Shown here: positions 5,396 through 17,428 of the stretch, one piece after another
How positions within the stretch are numbered: position 1 is the first letter of the stretch
Layout of the letters: each line of letters starts with the position of its first letter
Source: an uncultured Alphaproteobacteria bacterium
GTDB taxonomy: Bacteria > Pseudomonadota > Alphaproteobacteria > HIMB59
Assembly: GCA_902521155.1 (NCBI GenBank)
Contig: CABYQR010000003.1
Span: forward strand, 602 to 64,601
Length of the DNA: 64,000 bases
Reading direction: 5' to 3'
Translations under genes and position numbers: made by a program
Notes under the pieces: model-generated
The model's input: only the letters and a program-made list of their open reading frames with translations
Database searches by the model: none
What the model was told of the DNA's origin: nothing

Positions 5396-8300
5396 ATGTC
5401 TAATTCTAAATTTATTCTTTTATGCGAAGATGATAAAATAGCTTTAGACTTTTTAAATATATATAAAGCGCAATATCCTTCTATTAAGATTTGCTATTTC
5501 CCAGCTCATGATTCACTTCCATTCAGTACTGAAAAATCAAGTGAACAAATACTTTTAGATAGATCTAAGAGTTTAATAAATATTAACAAAAATGAAGTCA
5601 TCATAATAACTTGTAATAATCTTTTAAAACTAATTGAAATTAATAAAGGTGTTGATCACTATTTTAAGATTAAGACTAATCAACAATTAAAATTAAAAGA
5701 AATTGTAAAAAAATTAGTTGAATTTGGACATAATAATAATCCTAATGTTTATAATAAATTAGAGTTTTCGCAAAGAGGTGACATCTTAGATATTTATAAT
5801 TGCCAAACAAATCCATATAGAATTTCTTTCTTTGATAATACGATTGAGTCTATCAAACAATTTAATCCTCAAAGTCAATTAACTAACAAAAAAGAAATTG
5901 ATGAAATAACTATTGTAAATCCTTTTATTGAGTCTACTGAAACTAATCATAAAAGTACAAATATTCTAGAATTGCTTGAGGGTTATGATATCAAAACATT
6001 AAATAGAGGTGATTTAATTTTATATGAAAGAATTAAATTTTTTAAATCAATTTATAAACAAAGTGGCATAATAGATCCATATGAGAATTTTTATTTAGAT
6101 GAAGAAATCTTTAAAAAAATCAATTTTGAAAATATTCAAATATCAACTCCAAAGATTTATTTAGATACAAAAAATGTATCTTTGGACTCACTTACTGGCA
6201 TTAAATCTAAAATCATTATACATGAAGGATCTAATGAAACTTCTTTTAAGAAAGAATATTTTGAAAAAATTAAAATAGAACCAAACTATGCCAATAACAT
6301 AACATTTGTAGATACGGTAATTTCTAAAAACTTATCTAGTAATGGGTATATCCACATTAATGCCTACAATAAACCATCCAAGAATGCATTCACAGAGAAT
6401 GTTGTAAGTTTTAATGAGTTAAGTCTTGGCGATGCAATAGTTCATCAAAAACATGGTATAGGAAGATTTTTATCCATAGATAGTATTGAAATAAGTCATA
6501 GAATTAGAGAGTTTGTAAGATTGATTTATCGAAATAATGATAAATTACTACTACCTATAGAAAATTTAAATTTAATATCTAGATACGGTTTTGATGATAG
6601 TGGTGTTATTTTAGATAAATTAGGTAGTTCTGATTTTTCTATTAGAAAAAACTCTGTAAAGAAAAAGATTAAATTTCTTGCCAATAAGTTGCTTAAAAAT
6701 GCCGCCAGAAGAGAGACTTTATCTATTAAATCATTTGACTATTCTGAAAGTAATCTTGAAAAATTTAATAAACAGTTTGGTTTTATTGAAACTGAGGATC
6801 AATTAAATTCTATTGATGTCTCTTTATCAGATCTAAAATCTAATAAACCAGCAAATAGATTAATATGTGGAGATGTTGGTTTTGGTAAAACTGAAGTAGC
6901 TCTCAGAATTGCCTGTGCTACTTATCTATCTGGTTTTCAATTCATAATAGTTGTTCCTACTACTTTATTAGCATTACAGCATAGTCGAACATTTTCTGAT
7001 AGATTTTTAATTTTTAATGAAAGAGTCGCTACTCTATCAAGGTTTACTTCACAAAAAGAAAAAAATGAAATACTTGAAAAGCTTCGAACTGGCGATATTC
7101 AAATACTCATAGCTACACATAGTTTATTTAAAAAAGAAATAGAATTTAATAACCTCGGTACTTTAGTAATAGATGAAGAACAAAAGTTTGGAGTAGATCA
7201 AAAAGAATACCTAATAAATAAATATCCTCACATCCATCTATTTTCACTATCTGCAACTCCCATACCTAGAACACTTCAAATGTCTTTGTTGGGATTAAAA
7301 GATTTAAGTGTAATTGGAACACCGCCCTCTAATAGGTTAGCCATTAGAACTTATGTACAAAGATATGAGCAGGTTTCTTTTTTAACTGCTGTTAATAATG
7401 AAATTTCAAGAAATGGTCAAATTTTTATTGTTGTTCCTCGAATAAGTCATATCCCATTTGTTGAAAGTGAGATTAAGAAATTAAATTTAAATATTAGTTA
7501 TGGGATAGGACATAGCAAAATGAAAGAAAAAGATATAGAGGAAGTCTTTATGTCATTTTCTGAAGGTAGAATACAATGTTTAATATCTACTAATATTATT
7601 GAGTCAGGCATTGATATTAAAAATGCTAATACACTTATAATTTTTAATTCTAATTTATTTGGTTTATCGCAACTTTATCAATTAAGAGGTAGGGTAGGTA
7701 GGTCTGATATAAGAGCTTATGCTTATTTATTTCATGATAGCGAAAAACTTATTAATAAAACGGCACTTAAAAAATTACAAGTGCTAGCAAATTATGAAAA
7801 TTTGGGATCCAATTTTCAATTAGCAAATGAAGATTTAGAGATTAGAGGAGCTGGTAATCTTTTAGGTGATGAACAAAGTGGTCATGTTAAAGAAATAGGA
7901 ATTGAACTCTATCAAAGCATGCTAAGGGAAGAAGTTGAAAGACAAAAAAACAATACATCACCTGAACAAGAAAAATATGAAGATTTTGAATTTAATGCCT
8001 ATTTTGAATATTATATTTCGAAGAATTATATAAAAGATGATATATCAAGATTAATTATTTATCGAAAATTAACAAACGCTCAATCATCACTGGAATTAAA
8101 AAGCATCCTTAATGAAATGTATGATAGGTATGGTAACTACCCACCTGAGGTTACAAATCTTATAAATCTCTTACAAATTAAATTAAAATCCATATCAGTA
8201 GGAATTATCAAAATTAATATTCAAAAAAAATATATAGATCTCTCTTTTATTAAAGTATCTGAAGAAATTTCTAAAATACTAATAAATATGGTTCAAGATA

Positions 8301-8404
8301 AGATTATCAAAATGAAAAGTTCAAAGGTTATAAAAATAAAAAATGCAGAAAAGGAAGATATTTTTTATACTATAAATTTATTCTATAAAAAGTTAGGATT
8401 ATAA
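5396..8404 (+). CDS. mfd: Transcription-repair coupling factor Mfd (compact, 1002 aa)
   Basis: EFSQRGDILDI, CarD-like VHQKHGIG, CGDVGFGKTEVA, IDEEQKFGV, SATPIPRTL, LYQLRGRVGRS, C-terminal TRCF domain. Confidence 0.95.
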   Translation: MSNSKFILLCEDDKIALDFLNIYKAQYPSIKICYFPAHDSLPFSTEKSSEQILLDRSKSLININKNEVIIITCNNLLKLIEINKGVDHYFKIKTNQQLKLKEIVKKLVEFGHNNNPNVYNKLEFSQRGDILDIYNCQTNPYRISFFDNTIESIKQFNPQSQLTNKKEIDEITIVNPFIESTETNHKSTNILELLEGYDIKTLNRGDLILYERIKFFKSIYKQSGIIDPYENFYLDEEIFKKINFENIQISTPKIYLDTKNVSLDSLTGIKSKIIIHEGSNETSFKKEYFEKIKIEPNYANNITFVDTVISKNLSSNGYIHINAYNKPSKNAFTENVVSFNELSLGDAIVHQKHGIGRFLSIDSIEISHRIREFVRLIYRNNDKLLLPIENLNLISRYGFDDSGVILDKLGSSDFSIRKNSVKKKIKFLANKLLKNAARRETLSIKSFDYSESNLEKFNKQFGFIETEDQLNSIDVSLSDLKSNKPANRLICGDVGFGKTEVALRIACATYLSGFQFIIVVPTTLLALQHSRTFSDRFLIFNERVATLSRFTSQKEKNEILEKLRTGDIQILIATHSLFKKEIEFNNLGTLVIDEEQKFGVDQKEYLINKYPHIHLFSLSATPIPRTLQMSLLGLKDLSVIGTPPSNRLAIRTYVQRYEQVSFLTAVNNEISRNGQIFIVVPRISHIPFVESEIKKLNLNISYGIGHSKMKEKDIEEVFMSFSEGRIQCLISTNIIESGIDIKNANTLIIFNSNLFGLSQLYQLRGRVGRSDIRAYAYLFHDSEKLINKTALKKLQVLANYENLGSNFQLANEDLEIRGAGNLLGDEQSGHVKEIGIELYQSMLREEVERQKNNTSPEQEKYEDFEFNAYFEYYISKNYIKDDISRLIIYRKLTNAQSSLELKSILNEMYDRYGNYPPEVTNLINLLQIKLKSISVGIIKINIQKKYIDLSFIKVSEEISKILINMVQDKIIKMKSSKVIKIKNAEKEDIFYTINLFYKKLGL

Positions 8405-8405
8405 A

Positions 8406-8603
8406 ATGGAGAACATGGATCAACAACTTCCTAAGACTAATGCAGATTGGGCTATATATTATAACTCTATTCTAGAAGAACTGACAGAAAATCAAAAAGA
8501 AATTGGTCAACCTATTTCTGTAGATGAATTTCATGCGCTTCCTATAAAACGAAAGCAAAAATATATGAAAAAATTATATTTAAAAATTGGCGATGCAGAG
8601 TAA
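8406..8603 (+). CDS. Hypothetical protein
   Basis: 65-aa ORF packed tightly between mfd and the next gene. Confidence 0.6.
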   Translation: MENMDQQLPKTNADWAIYYNSILEELTENQKEIGQPISVDEFHALPIKRKQKYMKKLYLKIGDAE

Positions 8604-9561
8604 AGATTATATTCCTAATATTGATTTATCAGAAATATTAGAAAATAGTAAATCTGAAGCTATTATAAATAAAATTAAGTTGGCTTCTGAAGAGGTTGGT
8701 TTTTTTACAGTCACCAATCATGGAATTCCTCTTTCTCAAATAGAAAATTTATTAAGCACTTGTAAGAAATTTTTTTACTTACCTAAGAAAGAAAAAATTA
8801 AAATTGCTCCTAAAAAATGGAACCGTAATACCGATACAATTTATAGAGGATATTTTCCAAGTGAAGTTAATGGTAAAGAAGGCCTTGATATTGGTGATCC
8901 CAAATTAACAATTGATATGAATGAACTTCTAGTTAAAGAGAAATTCGAAGTTAATCATGATATGTCATTTCTTGATCCTCAATGGCAAATAACTATCAAT
9001 GAATATTTTGATAGTATCCATAATCTTGGAATTTTAATTTTTAAAGCAATTATAAGCTCTTATTCAAGTAATACTATTTTAGCAGAAAAGGCTTTTATAA
9101 GACCTAAAACGTTATCAACCCTTAGATTTAACTATTATCCTAAGCAAGAGAAACCTGTAGAGGTATCTGCTCAAGATGGAGTAGCACTCGGTTGCGAAAC
9201 CCATGTTGATAGTGGAATTATGACTATTTTGTATCAGGATAAAAAAGGAGGTCTTCAAGTCCAAAATAGACATACGCTCGAGTGGCATGATGTACCTCAT
9301 GATCCCAATGCTTTTGTAATTAATACTGGTCTTGCTTTAGAATGTCTTACAAATGGTAAAATGAAAGCAACTAATCATCGAGTCTTATTTAACCAAGAAG
9401 AAAGAGTATCTATTCCTTTCTTTTTTGAGCCTTCTTATGATTTTGTACTAGATCCTAAACATTTAAATATTTCAGAAGAGAATAAATATGATATTGATAA
9501 CTATGAGAATTTTTTAACTAATTCTCTTAAAAAATTTGTTGAATATGACAGGGCTAATTAA
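8593..9561 (+). CDS. Isopenicillin N synthase family 2OG-Fe(II) oxygenase
   Basis: IPNIDLS, GFFTVTNHGI, LRFNYYP, HVD...H facial triad, RVSIPFF. Confidence 0.9.
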   Translation: MQSKDYIPNIDLSEILENSKSEAIINKIKLASEEVGFFTVTNHGIPLSQIENLLSTCKKFFYLPKKEKIKIAPKKWNRNTDTIYRGYFPSEVNGKEGLDIGDPKLTIDMNELLVKEKFEVNHDMSFLDPQWQITINEYFDSIHNLGILIFKAIISSYSSNTILAEKAFIRPKTLSTLRFNYYPKQEKPVEVSAQDGVALGCETHVDSGIMTILYQDKKGGLQVQNRHTLEWHDVPHDPNAFVINTGLALECLTNGKMKATNHRVLFNQEERVSIPFFFEPSYDFVLDPKHLNISEENKYDIDNYENFLTNSLKKFVEYDRAN

Positions 9562-10006
9562 AAAACTTTTTATTTTATCAGTGTTTGGACTTTTGGGTTG
9601 TAACAACATGATAGACGGAGTTAATAAATCTGATACTCAAAGAATTAACACAGTAAAATATGGCACTTTAGTTGCCGCAGAACCAGTTAAGATTAAAGGC
9701 GAAGATGATGGTCTAGGTGCTATTACAGGGGGGTTATTAGGCGCTGTTATAGGCTGTGGTGAGGGCATATTTGATGATGAATGCAGAGACACTGTAGCTG
9801 TAGTAGGAGCTATTGGAGGTGCCATTATAGGTAATGCTGTAGCTTCAAGATTGGGTGATCATAATGGTTTTCAATATGTTATTGACGTAGAAGACAGTGA
9901 TGAAGATATTTCTATAGTTCAATCTGGCGATGAACAAATTCCCATAGGTTCAAAAGTTACTGTTTCAATTGGAGCTAATACTAGAATTATTCAATCTGAT
10001 AGTTAA
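9545..10006 (+). CDS. Glycine-zipper outer membrane lipoprotein (SlyB/Pcp-like)
   Basis: Lipobox LLGC; GAITGGLLGAVIG and GAIGGAIIG glycine zippers; ISIVQ. Confidence 0.85.
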   Translation: MTGLIKKLFILSVFGLLGCNNMIDGVNKSDTQRINTVKYGTLVAAEPVKIKGEDDGLGAITGGLLGAVIGCGEGIFDDECRDTVAVVGAIGGAIIGNAVASRLGDHNGFQYVIDVEDSDEDISIVQSGDEQIPIGSKVTVSIGANTRIIQSDS

Positions 10007-10038
10007 ATAAATTTAATTTTAAATAAGGAGAAACTTAG

Positions 10039-10341
10039 ATGTTTATTGCAATGAATAGATTTAAAGTGAAATTAGGTGAAGAGTCTTATTTTGAAGATAT
10101 TTGGAAGAATAGAGATACTCACCTAAATGAAGTTCCTGGTTTTAAAAAATTTAACTTGATAAAAAGTGAGTCTAGTGAACAGTTTACATTGTACGCTTCG
10201 CACAGCGAATGGTCATCAAAACAAGATTTTATTAATTGGACAAAATCTGAAGCTTTTAGAATGGCTCATAAAAATGCAGGTGGACATAAAAGTGTTTACC
10301 TAGACCATCCACAATTTGAAGGATTTGAAGTAGTATTATAA
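10039..10341 (+). CDS. Antibiotic biosynthesis monooxygenase family protein (IsdG/HmoA-like)
   Basis: MFIAMNRFKV, VPGF, WTKSEAFRMAH; AGGAG ribosome-binding site upstream. Confidence 0.9.
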   Translation: MFIAMNRFKVKLGEESYFEDIWKNRDTHLNEVPGFKKFNLIKSESSEQFTLYASHSEWSSKQDFINWTKSEAFRMAHKNAGGHKSVYLDHPQFEGFEVVL

Positions 10342-10348
10342 ATTTTAA

Positions 10349-10708
10349 TTAGAAGGAGTAAGTTAACTCTCCGCCAATACTAAGACCTTTACCATACTGT
10401 TCTATAATTTTTCCAAATTCGAGAAAATAATCATTTTTTTGTGCATGATCTTCATGTCTCATTACACTTTCCATTGAAGAAAATTGTTCGTTAATTGTAA
10501 AAATCATACCTCCGGTTTCGCCAGAACTGGGATCTAGTGAATTATTGTACTCTGGAGCTTTTGTAAAATATCCATGCAATAGGTGTTCTTTATCATCACC
10601 ATAGAAGCTTTTCATCCAGTCCCCATGCTTGTTAAAGATTTTTTCTACTTCTTCTACTTTTTCTTTAGGTGCAATTACAGTTAAGTTTATGCATTTAATG
10701 TCACTCAT
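10349..10708 (-). CDS. Hypothetical protein, possibly dimeric alpha+beta barrel
   Basis: 119 aa with GGAG RBS; INEQFSSMESVMRH resembles the ABM-type E...H pattern. Confidence 0.65.
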   Translation of the reverse strand: MSDIKCINLTVIAPKEKVEEVEKIFNKHGDWMKSFYGDDKEHLLHGYFTKAPEYNNSLDPSSGETGGMIFTINEQFSSMESVMRHEDHAQKNDYFLEFGKIIEQYGKGLSIGGELTYSF

Positions 10709-10789
10709 ACGAATTCTCCATAAATTTTTATAATTATTAAATTATATTTATAAAATTATCTATTTAAGAAAAAAGAAATTTATTAGCTT

Positions 10790-10879
10790 TGGCGGAGAGA
10801 CTGGGATTCGAACCCAGGAAGGGCTTGCACCCTTGTCAGTTTTCAAGACTGATGCGTTCAACCGCTCTGCCATCTCTCC
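10790..10879 (-). tRNA. tRNA-Ser(UGA)
   Basis: Reverse complement folds as a cloverleaf: GGAGAGA acceptor stem, TCAGT-CTTGAAA-ACTGA anticodon arm, long variable arm, GGTTCGAATCC T-loop, encoded CCA. Confidence 0.97.
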
Positions 10880-10951
10880 GAAACTAAATCAGCTTCTAAA
10901 ATGTATATATTACAATGTTTTTAATTCAAATATAAATTTAACCATTATCTC

Positions 10952-10984
10952 TTGACCACAATTTGTCCACAATCTGACCACAAA
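10952..10984. repeat. Three tandem imperfect 11-bp direct repeats
   Basis: TTGACCACAAT / TTGTCCACAAT / CTGACCACAAA, located between tRNA-Ser and the VTC gene. Confidence 0.8.
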
Positions 10985-11033
10985 TCAGAATGAATAAACA
11001 TTATTTATTCAATATAAATAAGGTTTATTTAAT

Positions 11034-11735
11034 TTAAATTCTTAATTTATCTATTCCAAAAACATACTTTGAACTTTTAGTTATCCTGAATGGAAAATGG
11101 TTAGAAATATTAGATGCATCTTTGTCCATAATTTTATCATATTTAATTTCAAAAATTCTTCTATTTGATGATTTTAAGATATTATTAAAATTATTATTGT
11201 AATTTTTAATTAATAAAAATTGAAGACCATAATCATATGTTATTCTAAATTTCTTGTTATTTGAAATATAATATTTTCTATTATATCCATTCATTAAAGA
11301 CATTCGAAGTTTCAAAAGATATTTTTTAATAAGAGGTGATATTTTTAACCCGTTAAACTCTTCATAAATTTTTTCAATATTCAAGTTATAATCAATAGTT
11401 ATATTATTTAATTTAATAAAAAACTTTTTTCCAAGATTATTATTTTTAATTTTGAATTCTAATATAGGGTTCTTAATGAGACCATATGTATTTCCATACC
11501 ATCTTATTCTAACTTTTATTCTTTTTGATAAACCATTAACATTATCCCAATAAAAGTCTAAAGCTGGGGTATCAAAATAAATATTATTAATAAATCTATC
11601 AGAATATGATTTCTGAAAAATAAGAGGATGTTTTTTTAAACAAAAATAAAATTTATTTTCATTTAAAGATGAAATTACATATTTCTTTTCATATCTCTGA
11701 TCATTAACTGAAAAAAAATTTAAAATGTTATTCAT
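11034..11735 (-). CDS. VTC (polyphosphate polymerase) domain protein, CYTH/TTM superfamily
   Basis: RYEKKY, NIYFDTP, RIKVRIRWYG, LEFKIK, YNRKYY, FRITYD, FEIKY and SKY motifs. Confidence 0.88.
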   Translation of the reverse strand: MNNILNFFSVNDQRYEKKYVISSLNENKFYFCLKKHPLIFQKSYSDRFINNIYFDTPALDFYWDNVNGLSKRIKVRIRWYGNTYGLIKNPILEFKIKNNNLGKKFFIKLNNITIDYNLNIEKIYEEFNGLKISPLIKKYLLKLRMSLMNGYNRKYYISNNKKFRITYDYGLQFLLIKNYNNNFNNILKSSNRRIFEIKYDKIMDKDASNISNHFPFRITKSSKYVFGIDKLRI

Positions 11736-11785
11736 CTTATATTATGCTGTAATAGATTATTATTATAAATAAAATTTTTGTAACT

Positions 11786-14407
11786 TTACTTTATAATTTT
11801 TGAGTTTATAGATAAAAAAGAGTTGTCCTCTACTTTATATGGTATAGCTACATCTTTAATATCTAGCCCATTAATTATAACTGAGGCAGGTCCAAACTCT
11901 GGTTTTTTTTTAAACACATATACTCCTATATTAGTTGAATTTATTGTTAAATCACTCACTACTGTTTCAGAAAAATCTTTATTTGCTATGCCTATATTAC
12001 TACCTGTTATTAATGTGTCATTAATGTCAACAAAACTTTTTTCACCTATACTAATACCTTTATCAGAGGCTTTATTAATATAAATCTTATCTAGACTTAC
12101 TATACTTCCTGATAAATCAATACAATCACCATTATTATTATCAAAACCGCAATTTAGAAATTTAGAGTTTTTAATATTTCCGTTACTAAAATCTATATCA
12201 ATAGCATCTGAGTAAGAGTTTAAAATTGAGGAGTCATTAATAGAAAAATTTGACCTTATTATATTTATATAATCGTCTCCATTTGCATTTGTGTTAAAAT
12301 GAGTCTCATGCATATGTACAGGAGATTTATAGAAGTTGATAGAACCTGATAGTTCAAATCCAGACTTAATAGGATTAGATAAATTTTTAAACTTTACATA
12401 CTTTATAAGAGATGCTTTTTTTGCATTAATTAGTGTTATCCCTTGTCCAGAATTATCTGAGCTAAAAATTTTTATGTAATTTTCTTTTGAACCAACAATT
12501 GATAATGGCGAATATGACAAAATCATTGCAGAATTAATTAAATCTAAATTCACACCTTCTGGTATTATTAATTTATGATTTGGTGGAACTATTATATCTT
12601 CAGAGATTTTCCAATCTCCTTTTTTAAACTTAATTTCATTATTTATTTTATCCAAATCTAGAAAAGAAAAATTACTTACATTAAAATCTTTTCTAATAAA
12701 ATCTAATTTTTTTTCTTTACTATCAAAAGATTTGTAAGGGAAAATCTCTGTTGAAAATAATTTTTTAGTTCCGACAATACGATAAGTAATTTTTAATTTA
12801 GATAAATCTTCAATTAAAAAATTATTATTAGTTGCAAATTCAAATAAATGTGAAGAATGGACTACTGGTTCCATATATTTCCTATTATTTATAATTATTG
12901 GCTCTTGTTTTATTAAAGGATTATAAATTTTAGAATCCTTATCACTGATGAAAAGTACTTCCATAGGGATGGAATGATTATTTGCAATTGATAATTCAAT
13001 AATTCCTTTTTTATCCAAATTTTTAATATGAGCTTGAATACCTTTATGATAATTAAATTTGTCACGTAATCTTGACGCATTGCTGTATATGTTACTCTTG
13101 CTTTCTAATAGAAAATTATATAACGGATAGTCTTTAGCTAATATATTGGACAATTCTATTATTTCATTATTAAACTCCAAAAATAGATTATCTAAATATG
13201 TATCATCAGAAATTCTAACTAACTGTTTCATATATTCTTCTACAAAAGTGTGATCAGAAAATATATTTCTCAAAAATATACTATTATTATAAAGATCGTT
13301 TAGACGAAATAATCTAAAATCAGCAACATAATTTAAGGATTTTTCATTAAAATCATCATCAGGCACCGGTTCAAATTTTGACGTTATAGGATTATAATAA
13401 AATCGCATATTATTAAAACTAAAGCCATGCCAAGCTCCCATTACATCAGAAATAGCAGTCCACTTAGCTAGGAGTTTGATATCAAATACTTCACTTGTTC
13501 TAATTTGTCCTAACCTAAATTTTTCCATTAGGTTTTTAGCAGAAAAAAATTGCTCTCTAGAAAGATCATCTTTTAAAATATTGTCTAAATCAAAAGCAGT
13601 CAGATCCATGGAAAGATAGTAATTATCATAATCAATTAGATGAACTTTATCCGCAAAGAGAGGAATAGTATCTACTTTCATAACAGGTCCTTCTTTTCGA
13701 TGATTTCTTTCTAGCATTATTTTGTCGTATCTTTCATCAATCACATAAATCCCTTTATCTTCTCCATTCAAGATAAGTTTTATGAAATTATATTTTCTAG
13801 TTATTAAACCCTCTTTTTCATAAGCTTTTCTTATGAACCATTGTCCTAGAAAATTTCTTCTAGTTGGGTCCATTACTGAAAATTCTCGCATTCCAAATAT
13901 TGTTTCATCTTTTTTAAGTTTTAATCTAAAAGACCACTTTTCATCAGCTAAATGTTGATCTGCAATAGCACCCTTTAATCTAATTTTTGCATTATGTAAT
14001 TTTTCACTATTATGAACAGTAGCTTTTATCCATTCATTTTCGACTCCTCTGGTAGTTCCCGCAATTATTGAATTTTCTCTATTAAACATTAATTTCAAAT
14101 GATTTTCATATTTCAAATCAATCTTTAAAATTTCTGGATTGCTGAAGTATGAAAAGAATTTTCTCTTTAATATTCCTGGTGTATCTAAAATTATTGGTTT
14201 AGCTATCATATTTGAAAAACCAAAGTTTCTTTGAGCAATTATGCCTGCTGTGAAAGCACATAAAATTAAAAAAACTAATAATAGACTTAATAAGAACTTC
14301 CTATCTAGTATTTTAATTATTCTATTAAAATTGCTTTTATTAATTTTTGTTGAAGCTAAAGAAAAAGGAGAGACCCTAGATTTTTTTTCAACCCATTTAA
14401 ACTTCAT
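11786..14407 (-). CDS. Membrane-anchored CotH-family kinase with C-terminal right-handed beta-helix
   Basis: TM helix at about aa 38-58; KIRLKG...KWSFRLKL, NGEDKGIYVIDE, NNMRFYYNP...FEPVPDD; C-terminal repeats GDDYINI, SDAIDIDFS, GDCIDLSGS, DKGISIGE. Confidence 0.85.
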   Translation of the reverse strand: MKFKWVEKKSRVSPFSLASTKINKSNFNRIIKILDRKFLLSLLLVFLILCAFTAGIIAQRNFGFSNMIAKPIILDTPGILKRKFFSYFSNPEILKIDLKYENHLKLMFNRENSIIAGTTRGVENEWIKATVHNSEKLHNAKIRLKGAIADQHLADEKWSFRLKLKKDETIFGMREFSVMDPTRRNFLGQWFIRKAYEKEGLITRKYNFIKLILNGEDKGIYVIDERYDKIMLERNHRKEGPVMKVDTIPLFADKVHLIDYDNYYLSMDLTAFDLDNILKDDLSREQFFSAKNLMEKFRLGQIRTSEVFDIKLLAKWTAISDVMGAWHGFSFNNMRFYYNPITSKFEPVPDDDFNEKSLNYVADFRLFRLNDLYNNSIFLRNIFSDHTFVEEYMKQLVRISDDTYLDNLFLEFNNEIIELSNILAKDYPLYNFLLESKSNIYSNASRLRDKFNYHKGIQAHIKNLDKKGIIELSIANNHSIPMEVLFISDKDSKIYNPLIKQEPIIINNRKYMEPVVHSSHLFEFATNNNFLIEDLSKLKITYRIVGTKKLFSTEIFPYKSFDSKEKKLDFIRKDFNVSNFSFLDLDKINNEIKFKKGDWKISEDIIVPPNHKLIIPEGVNLDLINSAMILSYSPLSIVGSKENYIKIFSSDNSGQGITLINAKKASLIKYVKFKNLSNPIKSGFELSGSINFYKSPVHMHETHFNTNANGDDYINIIRSNFSINDSSILNSYSDAIDIDFSNGNIKNSKFLNCGFDNNNGDCIDLSGSIVSLDKIYINKASDKGISIGEKSFVDINDTLITGSNIGIANKDFSETVVSDLTINSTNIGVYVFKKKPEFGPASVIINGLDIKDVAIPYKVEDNSFLSINSKIIK

Positions 14408-15089
14408 TCAAATCTTGATAATCCATAAGATTTATAGAAATATTATTGCCCATCTTTTTAATTTTATCAGTAAAAAAGCTAATATCGTTTGGATTTTTAA
14501 TATCTATTATAAATGAAATTTCAACAACATCTTCGCTTGAGTCATATCTTTGAAGGTCTATTCCATCACAATATTCTTGTAATATTTGAGTGACATTGTT
14601 TAATTCAATTTTATCCTTCCTTGAATTAATAACCAAAAGCATCCCTCTACCGCTCTTAATAGTAGTTTTTTTTCCTTTATAGGTAATGAATATAACCAAG
14701 GCAATCATGATAAAAGCAATTAATGTTATTAGTCTTTGACCTGCGCCTAAGCCAAGCCCAATTGCTATAGTTAAAAATAAATAAACTAGTTCTTCAGGTT
14801 CTTTAATTGGAGCTCTAAATCTTACAATTGACAAGGCCCCGACAAGGCCAAGGGATAGAGCGAGTGAAGACTTAACTACAGTAATAATTAACATTGTTGT
14901 CATTCCTAGTAAAACAAAGTTATTTGAAAAATATTTTTTATTAGAGTTTGTGTTAGCAAAAGAAATAAACATAAACTTTAAAATGTAAGTAAGAATAGCA
15001 GTTAGTATTAAATTGGTTGCAAATTGAATTAAATCGACTTCTATGCTTTGTGAAGATAAAAACTGCTGAAAAGAATTAGATTTATCCAT
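14397..15089 (-). CDS. DUF4956 family membrane protein
   Basis: SSLALSLGLVGALSIVRFRAPIKEPEELVYLF signature, several TM helices and a soluble C-terminal domain. Confidence 0.9.
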   Translation of the reverse strand: MDKSNSFQQFLSSQSIEVDLIQFATNLILTAILTYILKFMFISFANTNSNKKYFSNNFVLLGMTTMLIITVVKSSLALSLGLVGALSIVRFRAPIKEPEELVYLFLTIAIGLGLGAGQRLITLIAFIMIALVIFITYKGKKTTIKSGRGMLLVINSRKDKIELNNVTQILQEYCDGIDLQRYDSSEDVVEISFIIDIKNPNDISFFTDKIKKMGNNISINLMDYQDLNEV

Positions 15090-15120
15090 AATAAATTTAC
15101 TAACTTAAATAATATATTTT

Positions 15121-15504
15121 CTAACTTTGTAAGCCATTTATGCGTTTAACACTATATACAGCACCAAGCATGAATGTAATTATACTGCTAGGAAATAGAA
15201 TATAACCTATAGTGTAAGTGTCAGGATAATACTGCATACCGAAGTAGAGAACAAATGCATTTAAAAGACATAAAAGCAAAAAAGTATAATTAGTGCCAAT
15301 TTTATCAAAAAACTCAGCTAGAGGCTTTAAAGTTACTATAGCTGCAGCAAATATAAAAATAATAGCAGGTATTATATTCATCATTATACCTGCTGACTCT
15401 AAATATGTGTAATCCGCAAGAGACTCCCAGGGTAAAACCATTGAAAGTGTCATAAAAAGAATAGAAACATAAACAAATCTTTTCCCTATAGATGTCAAAA
15501 CCAT
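15121..15504 (-). CDS. Hypothetical 4-TM membrane protein
   Basis: Hydrophobic 127-aa ORF, 31 bp upstream of DUF4956 on the same strand. Confidence 0.6.
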   Translation of the reverse strand: MVLTSIGKRFVYVSILFMTLSMVLPWESLADYTYLESAGIMMNIIPAIIFIFAAAIVTLKPLAEFFDKIGTNYTFLLLCLLNAFVLYFGMQYYPDTYTIGYILFPSSIITFMLGAVYSVKRINGLQS

Positions 15505-15612: not shown

Positions 15613-16671
15613 ATGGAATCAAGATTATTTAAATTATTAACTACAATTGCTCTTTTTTTATCGTTCAACCTATATGCCCATCACTCTAGTAATTGCGATG
15701 CCTTAAAAGACTATGATTTTTCAAAATTTGAAGAATGGAAAGGGGAGGTAATATCTAAATCCCCTGAATACAATCTAGATAGTAACTTTGTATCTAATTT
15801 AATTGAACCATACTCGGTCAATAAGAGCGTAATTGGTAACGATAAATGTCAGCCTGAATTTACACTTACATTTTCAGAATATTTAGAAAAGAGAATATCT
15901 GATTTAAGAATTGAAAATGGATTAAATAAAAAGAATAAATACAATTATTTATTAAAGAAAATTGAGAATAAATATAATGTACAATCCAGGTTTATTCTTT
16001 CTATATGGGGTCTTGAAACAGCTTATGGCGAAATCACAGGTAATTATCCTGTGATAGAGAGTCTACTTACAATGTCTTATGATGAAAGAAGGAGGCGATA
16101 TTTCACTAAAGAATTGTTTAATTCTTTTAGAATCATCAAAGAAGGTCATATAGATATTGATAATTTTAAAGGTTCATGGGCAGGAGCAATGGGGCAAAAT
16201 CAATTTATGCCTTCTAGTTTCCTCAATTACGCTCAAGATTTTAATAATGACGGTAAGAAAAATATCTGGACAGACATTGAAGACTCCTTGGCATCTATAG
16301 CTAGATACCTAAATGGAGTTGGTTCTAATAAATGGGATTCCAATTTCACCTGGGGAAGGGAAGTCATACCACCACAAAATATTAAATCAATTGAACCTGA
16401 ACTTTTCATAAAAAGAGAAAAAGGATGTCTTGCAATCAAGAAACTCTCAAAAAGAATACCTTTAAAAGAATTTAGATCGTATGGTTTCAAAAAAATGGAT
16501 GGAAGTAACCTATCTAATTTAGACCTAGATAGTTACTTATTAAGAATGGGGAGAAAAGATGGCGATTATAGGTATTTCATTGTTTATAGAAACTATTTAA
16601 ACATTTTATCTTATAATTGTTCTAATTATTATGGTCTCTCAGTTGGTTTATTAAGTGATCAATTTAAGTAA
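15613..16671 (+). CDS. mltB: Lytic murein transglycosylase (MltB/SLT_2 family)
   Basis: SIWGLETAYG, GSWAGAMGQNQFMPSS, DFNNDGK, YNCSNYY. Confidence 0.9.
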   Translation: MESRLFKLLTTIALFLSFNLYAHHSSNCDALKDYDFSKFEEWKGEVISKSPEYNLDSNFVSNLIEPYSVNKSVIGNDKCQPEFTLTFSEYLEKRISDLRIENGLNKKNKYNYLLKKIENKYNVQSRFILSIWGLETAYGEITGNYPVIESLLTMSYDERRRRYFTKELFNSFRIIKEGHIDIDNFKGSWAGAMGQNQFMPSSFLNYAQDFNNDGKKNIWTDIEDSLASIARYLNGVGSNKWDSNFTWGREVIPPQNIKSIEPELFIKREKGCLAIKKLSKRIPLKEFRSYGFKKMDGSNLSNLDLDSYLLRMGRKDGDYRYFIVYRNYLNILSYNCSNYYGLSVGLLSDQFK

Positions 16672-17428
16672 TTTAAATAAATTACTAATTTTACTGATTT
16701 TATCTTCATGTACAGTAACTACTAGCGATGTAAAGAAAGATAAAAAAAAAATCTTATCTACCAAAGATGAAAGTTACTTTCAAAAATCTAATATTGATAT
16801 TTCTCCCCTTGAGGACTACGAAACTGAGCTATTTGTATCTGAAAAATTTTATGTTGATGAAAATATTAAAGGAAATCAGGTATCACATATATCACTTCCT
16901 TTTCCAAGTGTGGTAAAAATATCAGATCCAGATAATCTCAAAAATTATTTAATAGCAAGAAACGTTAAATCTAATAATAACTCGAGATTTTCAATTAGTT
17001 CAGAAATATTTGATAAATTACAAGCAAAAACAAATATTTATATTGAATATCTTAAAGAAGAGTCAATTATTTTAAGAAAAGTAGAAGACTCCAAAGAAGA
17101 GAGTAAAATTAAAATGGACTCGACTATTATATCCGCTGAAACTCTTGACGATGACCAATCAGGAATTAGTTCTAAATTAGATTATAGTAAAATAAAGAAT
17201 TTAGAGGCCAAAATAGATAAATATAGAAATTTGTTATTAATAGATAAGTTTAATGACCTAAATAGCGCTAAGCTCCAAACAAATAAGATCAAAAACTTAG
17301 GCTTAATTATTGAAGAAATTGAAAATAAAATTTTTGTTTTTGCTGGCCCATTTAATGACAATAATATAAATCTTAAATTAGATTTTCTTATAAAAAATGG
17401 ATACATAAATGCAAAAATTTACCCTTAA
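16655..17428 (+). CDS. Degenerate RlpA-like lipoprotein with C-terminal SPOR-like domain
   Basis: Lipobox LSSC; SHISLPFPSVVKIS resembles RlpA AHxTLPLPSxVRV; VFAGPF SPOR motif; syntenic between mltB and dacA. Confidence 0.65.
   Translation: MINLSNLNKLLILLILSSCTVTTSDVKKDKKKILSTKDESYFQKSNIDISPLEDYETELFVSEKFYVDENIKGNQVSHISLPFPSVVKISDPDNLKNYLIARNVKSNNNSRFSISSEIFDKLQAKTNIYIEYLKEESIILRKVEDSKEESKIKMDSTIISAETLDDDQSGISSKLDYSKIKNLEAKIDKYRNLLLIDKFNDLNSAKLQTNKIKNLGLIIEEIENKIFVFAGPFNDNNINLKLDFLIKNGYINAKIYP

Follow-up and report, generated by a model that had tools for sequence, protein, structure and literature searches.

In a 64,000-nt stretch of DNA from an uncultured Alphaproteobacteria bacterium of the HIMB59 lineage (assembly GCA_902521155.1, contig CABYQR010000003.1, positions 602-64,601 of the forward strand; hereafter the window), we found a cassette of three genes. 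In their order of reading, they encode a DUF4956 membrane protein (P0002), a protein with a CotH kinase fold joined to a beta-helix (P0003), and a VTC-domain protein (P0004). The host is small and AT-rich, its habitat is seawater, and its assembly is 78% complete. Identity, topology and linkage of the three proteins are well supported; what they do together, we infer. Possibly, they form a single cross-membrane unit which supplies phosphate chemistry to a glycan in the periplasm or at the surface, and we put this reading forward as a tentative one.

Four co-oriented open reading frames (ORFs) on the minus strand lie between tRNA-Ser(tga) and mltB, and an earlier note on this DNA had taken all four as one block. 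The arrangement is as described, but the cassette consists of three genes, not four. Homologues of the remaining gene, P0001, were detected in 15 of 24 same-genus genomes (approximately 70% identity), while only one of the 24 was matched by the P0003 query and only one by the VTC family. Also, P0001 adjoins mltB in relatives that lack the cassette. As it is kept in the genus without the trio, P0001 is a core gene flanking the cassette rather than a part of it. The hydropathy scan of P0001 gave three clear transmembrane (TM) segments; the fourth one previously assigned to it, at the N-terminus, is possible only. Within the trio, the DUF4956 and CotH genes overlap by 11 nt (14397-14407), as had been noted before, and the same overlap occurs in two other loci (L007 and L008). 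Gaps of 50 nt separate CotH from VTC and of 31 nt P0001 from DUF4956.

Linkage of the three families was surveyed in 301 genomes of the phylum and in 14 control genomes. VTC was present in seven of the 301 genomes with a total of ten copies. All ten were located within about 4 kb of a DUF4956 gene, and seven had a CotH gene alongside. The DUF4956-VTC pair occurred without CotH in G172 and G200, and CotH occurred without VTC in 18 genomes of this survey, mostly belonging to one genus. Among the controls, VTC and DUF4956 were found in the same three genomes, i.e. those of Bacteroides thetaiotaomicron, Corynebacterium glutamicum, and Methanosarcina acetivorans, each of which carries all three families; CotH was found in these three and in Bacillus subtilis. 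In a set of 41 relatives, CotH and VTC matches fell in the same six genomes. VTC and DUF4956 thus co-occur almost obligatorily, with CotH as their commonest third partner, and the co-occurrence suggested in the earlier note was borne out by the neighbourhood survey.

Relatives of P0003 are numerous (over 200 full-length; 2737 clusters at 50% identity with E ≤ 1e-30). Its CotH subfamily comprised 316 species-level loci from bacteria and archaea, including Methanosarcina, DPANN, the candidate phyla radiation (CPR), Omnitrophota, and Planctomycetota. Where the flanks were long enough (45 species-level loci), both partners were co-oriented within 3.6 kb in 40 cases, and the order DUF4956-CotH-VTC was found in 36. 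In G172, the pair without CotH (L016:6621-9772) is followed 67 nt downstream by a co-oriented gene for a PHO4/PiT phosphate transporter (E = 4e-105), and the presence of this transporter in the operon ties the pair to phosphate. A gene for a LysR regulator is located beyond the transporter gene.

We also noted some variation in cassette layout. Two genomes, G086 (L014 and L015) and G206 (L012 and L013), carry two paralogous cassettes each, with differing gene order. CotH and VTC are about 1 kb apart, which leaves room for one more gene, in Methanolobus, Methanogenium, and metagenome-assembled genomes of Thermotogota and Nanohalarchaeota (L024, L025, L034, L046). In a single-amplified genome of Nanoarchaeota (L027), another DUF4956/VTC pair comes after the DUF4956-CotH-VTC cassette, on the other strand.

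Predicted folds and active sites

The VTC family of Pfam matched P0004 along profile positions 1-234 of 235, with 79.7 bits against a cut-off of 23. A profile built from 25 relatives matched yeast Vtc4 (3g3q) with E = 1.5e-5. In the resulting alignment, R14/K18 of P0004 corresponded to R196/K200 of Vtc4, R76/R78 to R264/R266, K95 to K281, and Y151/R153 to Y359/R361; all seven P0004 residues were invariant among the 25 relatives. Hothorn and co-workers are said to have identified, in 2009, K200, R264, R266, and K281, and also E426 and K458, as catalytic tunnel residues of Vtc4. Further invariant residues are located in the C-terminal part (E196/K198 and S222/K223). The tools gave no alignment of these to Vtc4, and a profile of the C-terminal half yielded weak matches to Vtc2/Vtc3 only; they probably correspond to E426 and S457/K458. 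An SPX domain and a fused membrane domain are absent from P0004: Pfam detected the VTC domain only, and the hydropathy scan no TM segment. Judging from its sequence, P0004 is a putative soluble triphosphate-tunnel enzyme of the Vtc4 type which has kept residues aligning with those of the Vtc4 tunnel. The missing TM segment had been read correctly in the earlier note, and so had the triphosphate tunnel motifs as far as the equivalents of K200, R264, R266, and K281 are concerned.

For P0002, the AlphaFold2 (AF2) model (pLDDT 79.7) contained four membrane helices at residues 20-44, 58-90 (kinked), 98-115, and 119-140, followed by a C-terminal beta-alpha-beta-beta-alpha-beta domain at 149-223. This domain resembled ACT-fold domains (Z = 9.5-8.9), and the C-domain of MgtC from Mycobacterium tuberculosis (2lqj) was matched with Z = 8.9 over 86 residues. 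The Pfam MgtC family itself reached 13.3 bits (E = 0.11), below its cut-off of 31.4. As modelled, P0002 is an MgtC-like protein with four TM helices and an ACT-like domain, the latter predicted to be cytoplasmic. The family is well conserved (63% mean column identity) and has an invariant stretch at V89-E100 (RFR..KEPEE, with R90, R92, K96, and E97-E100), which should face the cytoplasm according to the positive-inside rule. Fold searches with the model listed no match to the membrane domains of Vtc1 or Vtc4, a result that is not evidence of absence, as the TM part was barely tested by them. A complex prediction for DUF4956 and VTC gave a score of 0.00, which counts neither for nor against binding.

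P0003 matched the CotH family of Pfam with 38 bits (cut-off 23.8). Its single TM segment is preceded by a tail of 38 residues containing 11 K/R and 2 D/E, and by the positive-inside rule the protein is predicted to have its N-terminus inside and about 815 residues outside. The AF2 model (mean pLDDT 87.7) showed a CotH fold, then a beta-rich linker, and finally a right-handed beta-helix. Both the fold and a canonical proteobacterial CotH were used to link P0003 to the Bacillus cereus CotH structure 5jd9. Searches of the PDB with the P0003 sequence itself or with two profiles returned ferritin, ubiquitin repeats, and CorC, all spurious, and were discarded. In addition to AlgG, the beta-helix matched AlgE4, tailspike depolymerases, the RbmB lyase, GH28, GH87, and NosD (Z = 23-26). 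DxI[DN] motifs were located at residues 712, 734, and 761, those at 734 and 761 being DxID, and no DPH[DE] motif was found in P0003. Invariant residues of the helix include D712, N715, D734, D737, D739, D761, D764, D782, K783, E789, K810, and D811; invariance of such acidic and basic rungs speaks for conservation of a ligand or an active site. These results agree with the earlier description of a periplasm-facing kinase domain behind one N-terminal TM helix and of a C-terminal beta-helix of the polysaccharide type with repeated DxID motifs.

Bacillus subtilis CotH requires D228 and D251, and the exchange D228Q abolishes its activity (PMC7821199). Alignment of a canonical proteobacterial CotH to 5jd9 defined the corresponding motif as Asp, four residues, and Asn, followed by PWDYD, with the key Asp pair 23 residues apart. 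When the P0003 subfamily was aligned to canonical CotH with hhalign (probability 96.8%, E = 3e-10), Asp351 was placed at the metal-binding Asp and Asn333 at the Asn of the catalytic loop, and His327-Gly328 took the place of the catalytic Asp (Gly328) and the residue before it (His327). The register is backed by relatives that read 'FHD' (L002) and 'NHD' (the canonical L019). An ungapped alignment had suggested His327 as a direct replacement of the Asp; this was rejected, as hhalign and the relatives place Gly at the Asp position (0) and His one residue earlier (-1). All 26 sequences compared have His327, and D351 is nearly invariant. Among 80 species surveyed, His was present in 62 of the 68 readable motifs and was followed by Gly, Ala, or Ser. 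The CotH domain of P0003 is therefore, as far as its alignment tells, a non-canonical kinase fold with Gly328 at the position of the catalytic Asp. Of the previous label 'CotH-type kinase', the fold and the metal-binding Asp remain, but not the catalytic Asp. A CotH of the canonical kind can also be linked to VTC, as found in G086 ('NGDWPDHN ... YDTD'), and both CotH types are thus linked to VTC and DUF4956. The second cassette copy of G086 has a His at the position before the catalytic Asp.

The variable slot beside tRNA-Ser

The genes surrounding the trio are recG, mfd, a 2-oxoglutarate (2OG) oxygenase gene, ABM, tRNA-Ser, mltB, dacA, and tmk (features of the cassette and its borders are listed in Table 1). 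In three relatives of the same genus (L108-L110), the order is mfd, 2OG oxygenase, a glycine-zipper protein, ABM, orf119, tRNA-Ser, a 251-aa gene, P0001, mltB, dacA, and tmk. The 251-aa gene (6938-7693 in L108, and also present in L109 and L110) encodes a membrane protein of the TauE/SafE family (E = 2.8e-21), and the trio occupies its place in our window. The exchange of the TauE/SafE gene for the trio points to a slot for variable cargo at the tRNA. On the tRNA side, similarity to the cassette-free relatives stops near position 10940.

Table 1. Coordinates of the cassette, its protein features and its borders, given as positions in the window.
Feature	Position	Strand	Basis
VTC-domain protein P0004, 233 aa	11034-11735	-	Pfam PF09359, E = 3.2e-22
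CotH-fold/beta-helix protein P0003, 873 aa	11786-14407	-	Pfam PF08757, E = 1.9e-9, residues 142-402
P0003, predicted signal-anchor TM helix, aa 39-57	14237-14293	-	Hydropathy 2.85; model helix at 36-62
P0003, CotH kinase-fold domain (modelled), aa 90-452	13052-14140	-	5jd9 (B. cereus CotH): VIA-align Z = 26.7, root-mean-square deviation (rmsd) 3.3 A, 328 residues; Foldseek E = 9.3e-11
P0003, His327-Gly328, at canonical x-Asp (catalytic Asp, B. subtilis D228)	13424-13429	-	hhalign; translation checked
P0003, Asp351, metal-binding Asp (B. subtilis D251; 5jd9 chain D247)	13355-13357	-	hhalign
P0003, right-handed parallel beta-helix (modelled), aa 567-873	11789-12709	-	AlgG 4ozz: Z = 28.0, rmsd 2.5 A, 274 residues
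DUF4956 membrane protein P0002, 230 aa	14397-15089	-	Pfam PF16316, E = 2.5e-17
P0001, small membrane protein, 127 aa, flanking gene	15121-15504	-	No Pfam family
tRNA-Ser(tga), cassette boundary, outside the cassette	10790-10879	-	ARAGORN
mltB	15613-16671		SLT_2

In a more distant alphaproteobacterium (L007, GCA_028337745.1), an orthologous trio (7133-11335) with 66-77% identity was found, and the flanking core genes are 59-75% identical. This trio lies across the same tRNA-Ser on its opposite side, between the tRNA and the 2OG oxygenase gene, which means that it was either rearranged or gained independently at this tRNA. Neither flanking direct repeats nor an integrase were found at the cassette, so nothing points to recent site-specific integration. 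The guanine-cytosine (GC) content of the trio is 0.250 compared with 0.287 for the window, and approximately 4% of equal-sized windows are as low. This is mostly due to the VTC gene (0.189), while P0001 lies above the mean (0.312); the 'visibly AT-richer' block of the earlier note is, by these figures, a weak feature. Contigs from seawater metagenomes independently span the VTC/CotH, CotH/DUF4956, and DUF4956/P0001 junctions, and the arrangement is therefore not an assembly artefact. Contig depth over the trio was about 10x below that of the flanks; contig depths cannot rank genes, and no claim is drawn from this value.

No NCBIfam model matched any of P0001-P0004, and a scan for promoters and terminators gave no more sites than in shuffled sequence. 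Three 11-bp units in tandem (TTGACCACAAT / TTGTCCACAAT / CTGACCACAAA) were noted at 10952-10984, in the stretch that separates the VTC stop codon from the 5' side of tRNA-Ser; they begin just past the point at about 10940 where likeness to cassette-free relatives ends. All relatives examined also share, in syntenic position, two conserved hypothetical genes that have no Pfam family: orf119 (10349-10708, minus strand) beside tRNA-Ser, and orf257 (16655-17428, plus strand) between mltB and dacA.

Candidate mechanism and alternative explanations

The mechanism that we consider possible comprises four steps: (i) the three proteins would act as one unit across the membrane and direct phosphate chemistry to a polysaccharide of the periplasm or the cell surface; (ii) VTC would make a phosphoanhydride donor, i.e. 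short polyphosphate, from a nucleoside triphosphate at the inner face; (iii) DUF4956 would pass the donor across the membrane or couple it; and (iv) the CotH fold, with a non-canonical site formed by His327, Asp351, and Mg2+, would move a phosphate group or chain to a glycan which the beta-helix holds. For the third step, DUF4956 may work like the membrane part of VTC though unrelated to it. A more specific version appears distinctly improbable to us. Here, VTC and DUF4956 would constitute a prokaryotic polyphosphate synthase-translocase whose membrane part is analogous, not homologous, to that of yeast VTC, and the Asp-less CotH would be a phosphotransferase that depends on polyphosphate, employs His327 as base or phospho-acceptor, and (poly)phosphorylates a surface glycan outside the cytoplasm. 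If true, this would explain in general terms, for bacteria and archaea alike, how phosphoryl transfer is powered where ATP is lacking.

Several observations weigh against the four-step mechanism. We know of no CotH-fold enzyme that uses polyphosphate, and without the catalytic Asp there might just as well be no phosphotransfer whatever. Genes for glycan synthesis were not found within 10 kb of the trio. Moreover, PPK1 is present in 16 of the 24 genus relatives, where VTC is absent, so polyphosphate as such is independent of the cassette. PPK1, PPK2, and PPX were not found in the host assembly (78% complete), probably because part of the genome is missing from it. In view of this incompleteness and of PPK1 in the relatives, a role of VTC as the sole polyphosphate enzyme of the host was no longer considered. 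A Pfam scan of P0002 gave no DUF202/Vtc1-type match; together with the MgtC-like architecture, this indicates that DUF4956, which the earlier note took for the channel of a split VTC complex, is not such a channel by descent. The MgtC proteins characterised so far act as regulators and not as channels (PMC12345266). Our literature search found no report of an assay of a bacterial VTC protein, and in Streptococcus intermedius deletion of the VTC gene caused no reported change (PMC12345266).

Part of this evidence is also consistent with a regulated glycan-remodelling enzyme. In this case, the beta-helix would be catalytic (of the epimerase, lyase, or hydrolase type) and the CotH domain a pseudokinase which only binds a ligand or positions the enzyme, while DUF4956 and VTC, the latter as a tunnel domain binding or hydrolysing a tri- or polyphosphate, would sense the phosphate or nucleotide status of the cytoplasm and exert control across the membrane, with nothing being exported. 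The missing catalytic Asp, a helix with invariant acidic rungs and with AlgG, lyases, and depolymerases as its structural matches (Z = 23-28), the MgtC-like DUF4956 with its ACT-like domain, and the VTC deletion without reported phenotype in S. intermedius would all fit, as would the finding that MgtC acts through binding of other membrane proteins (as cited in PMC12345266). Nevertheless, we regard such an enzyme as somewhat unlikely: His327, Asp351, and the equivalents of the phosphate loops 'KWSFR' and 'RLKG' are conserved, which would not be expected in a dead domain, and the invariant equivalents of Vtc4 catalytic residues suggest turnover over mere binding. Also, an AlgG-type DPH[DE] motif is missing, and the DUF4956-VTC pair exists without a CotH or beta-helix partner. 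The latter observation would suit export of polyphosphate as the purpose of the system, since the pair is its invariant core and once lies beside a PiT phosphate transporter. VTC and DUF4956 would then deliver polyphosphate to the periplasm or surface for cation binding, for phosphate storage outside the cytoplasm, or for matrix building, and the CotH/beta-helix protein would anchor or trim the chain or attach it to a glycan. In yeast, VTC couples polyphosphate synthesis to translocation, which is in line with this possibility, but a pore in DUF4956 is only hypothetical and seawater is often scarce in phosphate, making its export costly; we judge polyphosphate export as the purpose to be rather unlikely.

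The Pfam match, the fold, and the conserved metal-binding Asp would agree with P0003 being an ordinary ATP-dependent CotH Ser/Thr protein kinase acting on envelope proteins, similar to the Bacillus spore-coat enzyme. This is very unlikely, however, as Gly takes the position of D228, whose exchange for Gln kills the B. subtilis enzyme, as the domain is predicted to reside in the periplasm, where ATP is not available, and as a protein substrate is less expected for a fusion with a polysaccharide-type beta-helix. Finally, the patchy occurrence of the cassette (1 of 24 other genomes of the genus), its slightly low GC content, and its position in a variable slot at a tRNA might indicate an island that decays or hitch-hikes and serves no function in the host. 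We give hardly any credence to this explanation, given three intact reading frames in which all family-invariant residues are kept, a trio in L007 about as similar as the flanking core genes, and the same joined genes on metagenome contigs.

If the four-step mechanism holds, VTC would be the first Vtc4-type polyphosphate polymerase shown in prokaryotes, and the cassette would provide a new route for phosphoanhydride energy across the cytoplasmic membrane as well as new chemistry for a kinase fold. Regardless of mechanism, the cassette is comparatively widespread among uncharacterised modules of the envelope, with 316 species-level loci and 2737 clusters at 50% identity for its CotH subfamily. 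It also occurs away from pel loci, and it includes a 'kinase' without the canonical catalytic Asp. The three controls which carry all three families, B. thetaiotaomicron, C. glutamicum, and M. acetivorans, are tractable.

Comparison with known systems

Published accounts treat the trio solely as an accessory set within pel loci of Gram-positive bacteria (Whitfield et al., 10.1101/768473), with SIR_1594/1593/1592 of S. intermedius as an example (PMC12345266). Deletion of DUF4956 or CotH in this species lowered aggregation and changed Pel levels (PMC12345266), and the authors of that study considered the trio to be absent outside pel loci. This restriction does not hold, given the survey loci and a trio without pel genes nearby. 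Both here and in pel loci, the three families are adjacent and co-oriented, with CotH predicted to be extracellular, VTC to be cytoplasmic, and DUF4956 to have four TM helices and an ACT-like domain. The present trio differs by its Gram-negative host and by the absence of pel genes within 10 kb, and PelG was not found in the host genome (78% complete). Furthermore, the pel-locus CotH carries an FN3 domain and, in streptococci, keeps the catalytic residues according to its authors, whereas P0003 has an AlgG-like beta-helix and no catalytic Asp.

With the eukaryotic VTC complex (Vtc4/Vtc3 or Vtc2/Vtc1; 3g3q and 8i6v), the cassette shares the tunnel domain as defined by Pfam, the equivalents of K200, R264, R266, and K281, and the obligatory pairing with a small multi-pass membrane protein. 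In contrast, P0004 has neither an SPX nor a fused TM domain, and its partner is MgtC-like instead of a DUF202/Vtc1 protein with three TM helices. Polymerase activity and translocation are putative here. Resemblance to MgtC of Salmonella and M. tuberculosis (2lqj) consists of an N-terminal helical membrane domain and an ACT-like C-domain in the same position, but the Pfam score is sub-threshold, and DUF4956 has its own V89-E100 motif and is always paired with VTC.

The Ser/Thr kinase CotH of Bacillus (5jd9/5jda) and P0003 have in common the fold, the metal-binding Asp, and the Asn of the catalytic loop. They differ in that D228 is replaced by Gly328 beside an invariant His327 and in that P0003 is predicted to be membrane-anchored and extracytoplasmic, is fused to a beta-helix, and has VTC and DUF4956 as partners instead of cotG and cotB. 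Compared with the mannuronan C5-epimerases AlgG and AlgE and related CASH enzymes, the helix of P0003 has approximately 10% identity, no DPH[DE] motif, and other invariant Asp/Lys rungs, yet AlgG is the best structural match of residues 567-873, and AlgG itself is periplasmic and acts on an acidic polysaccharide.

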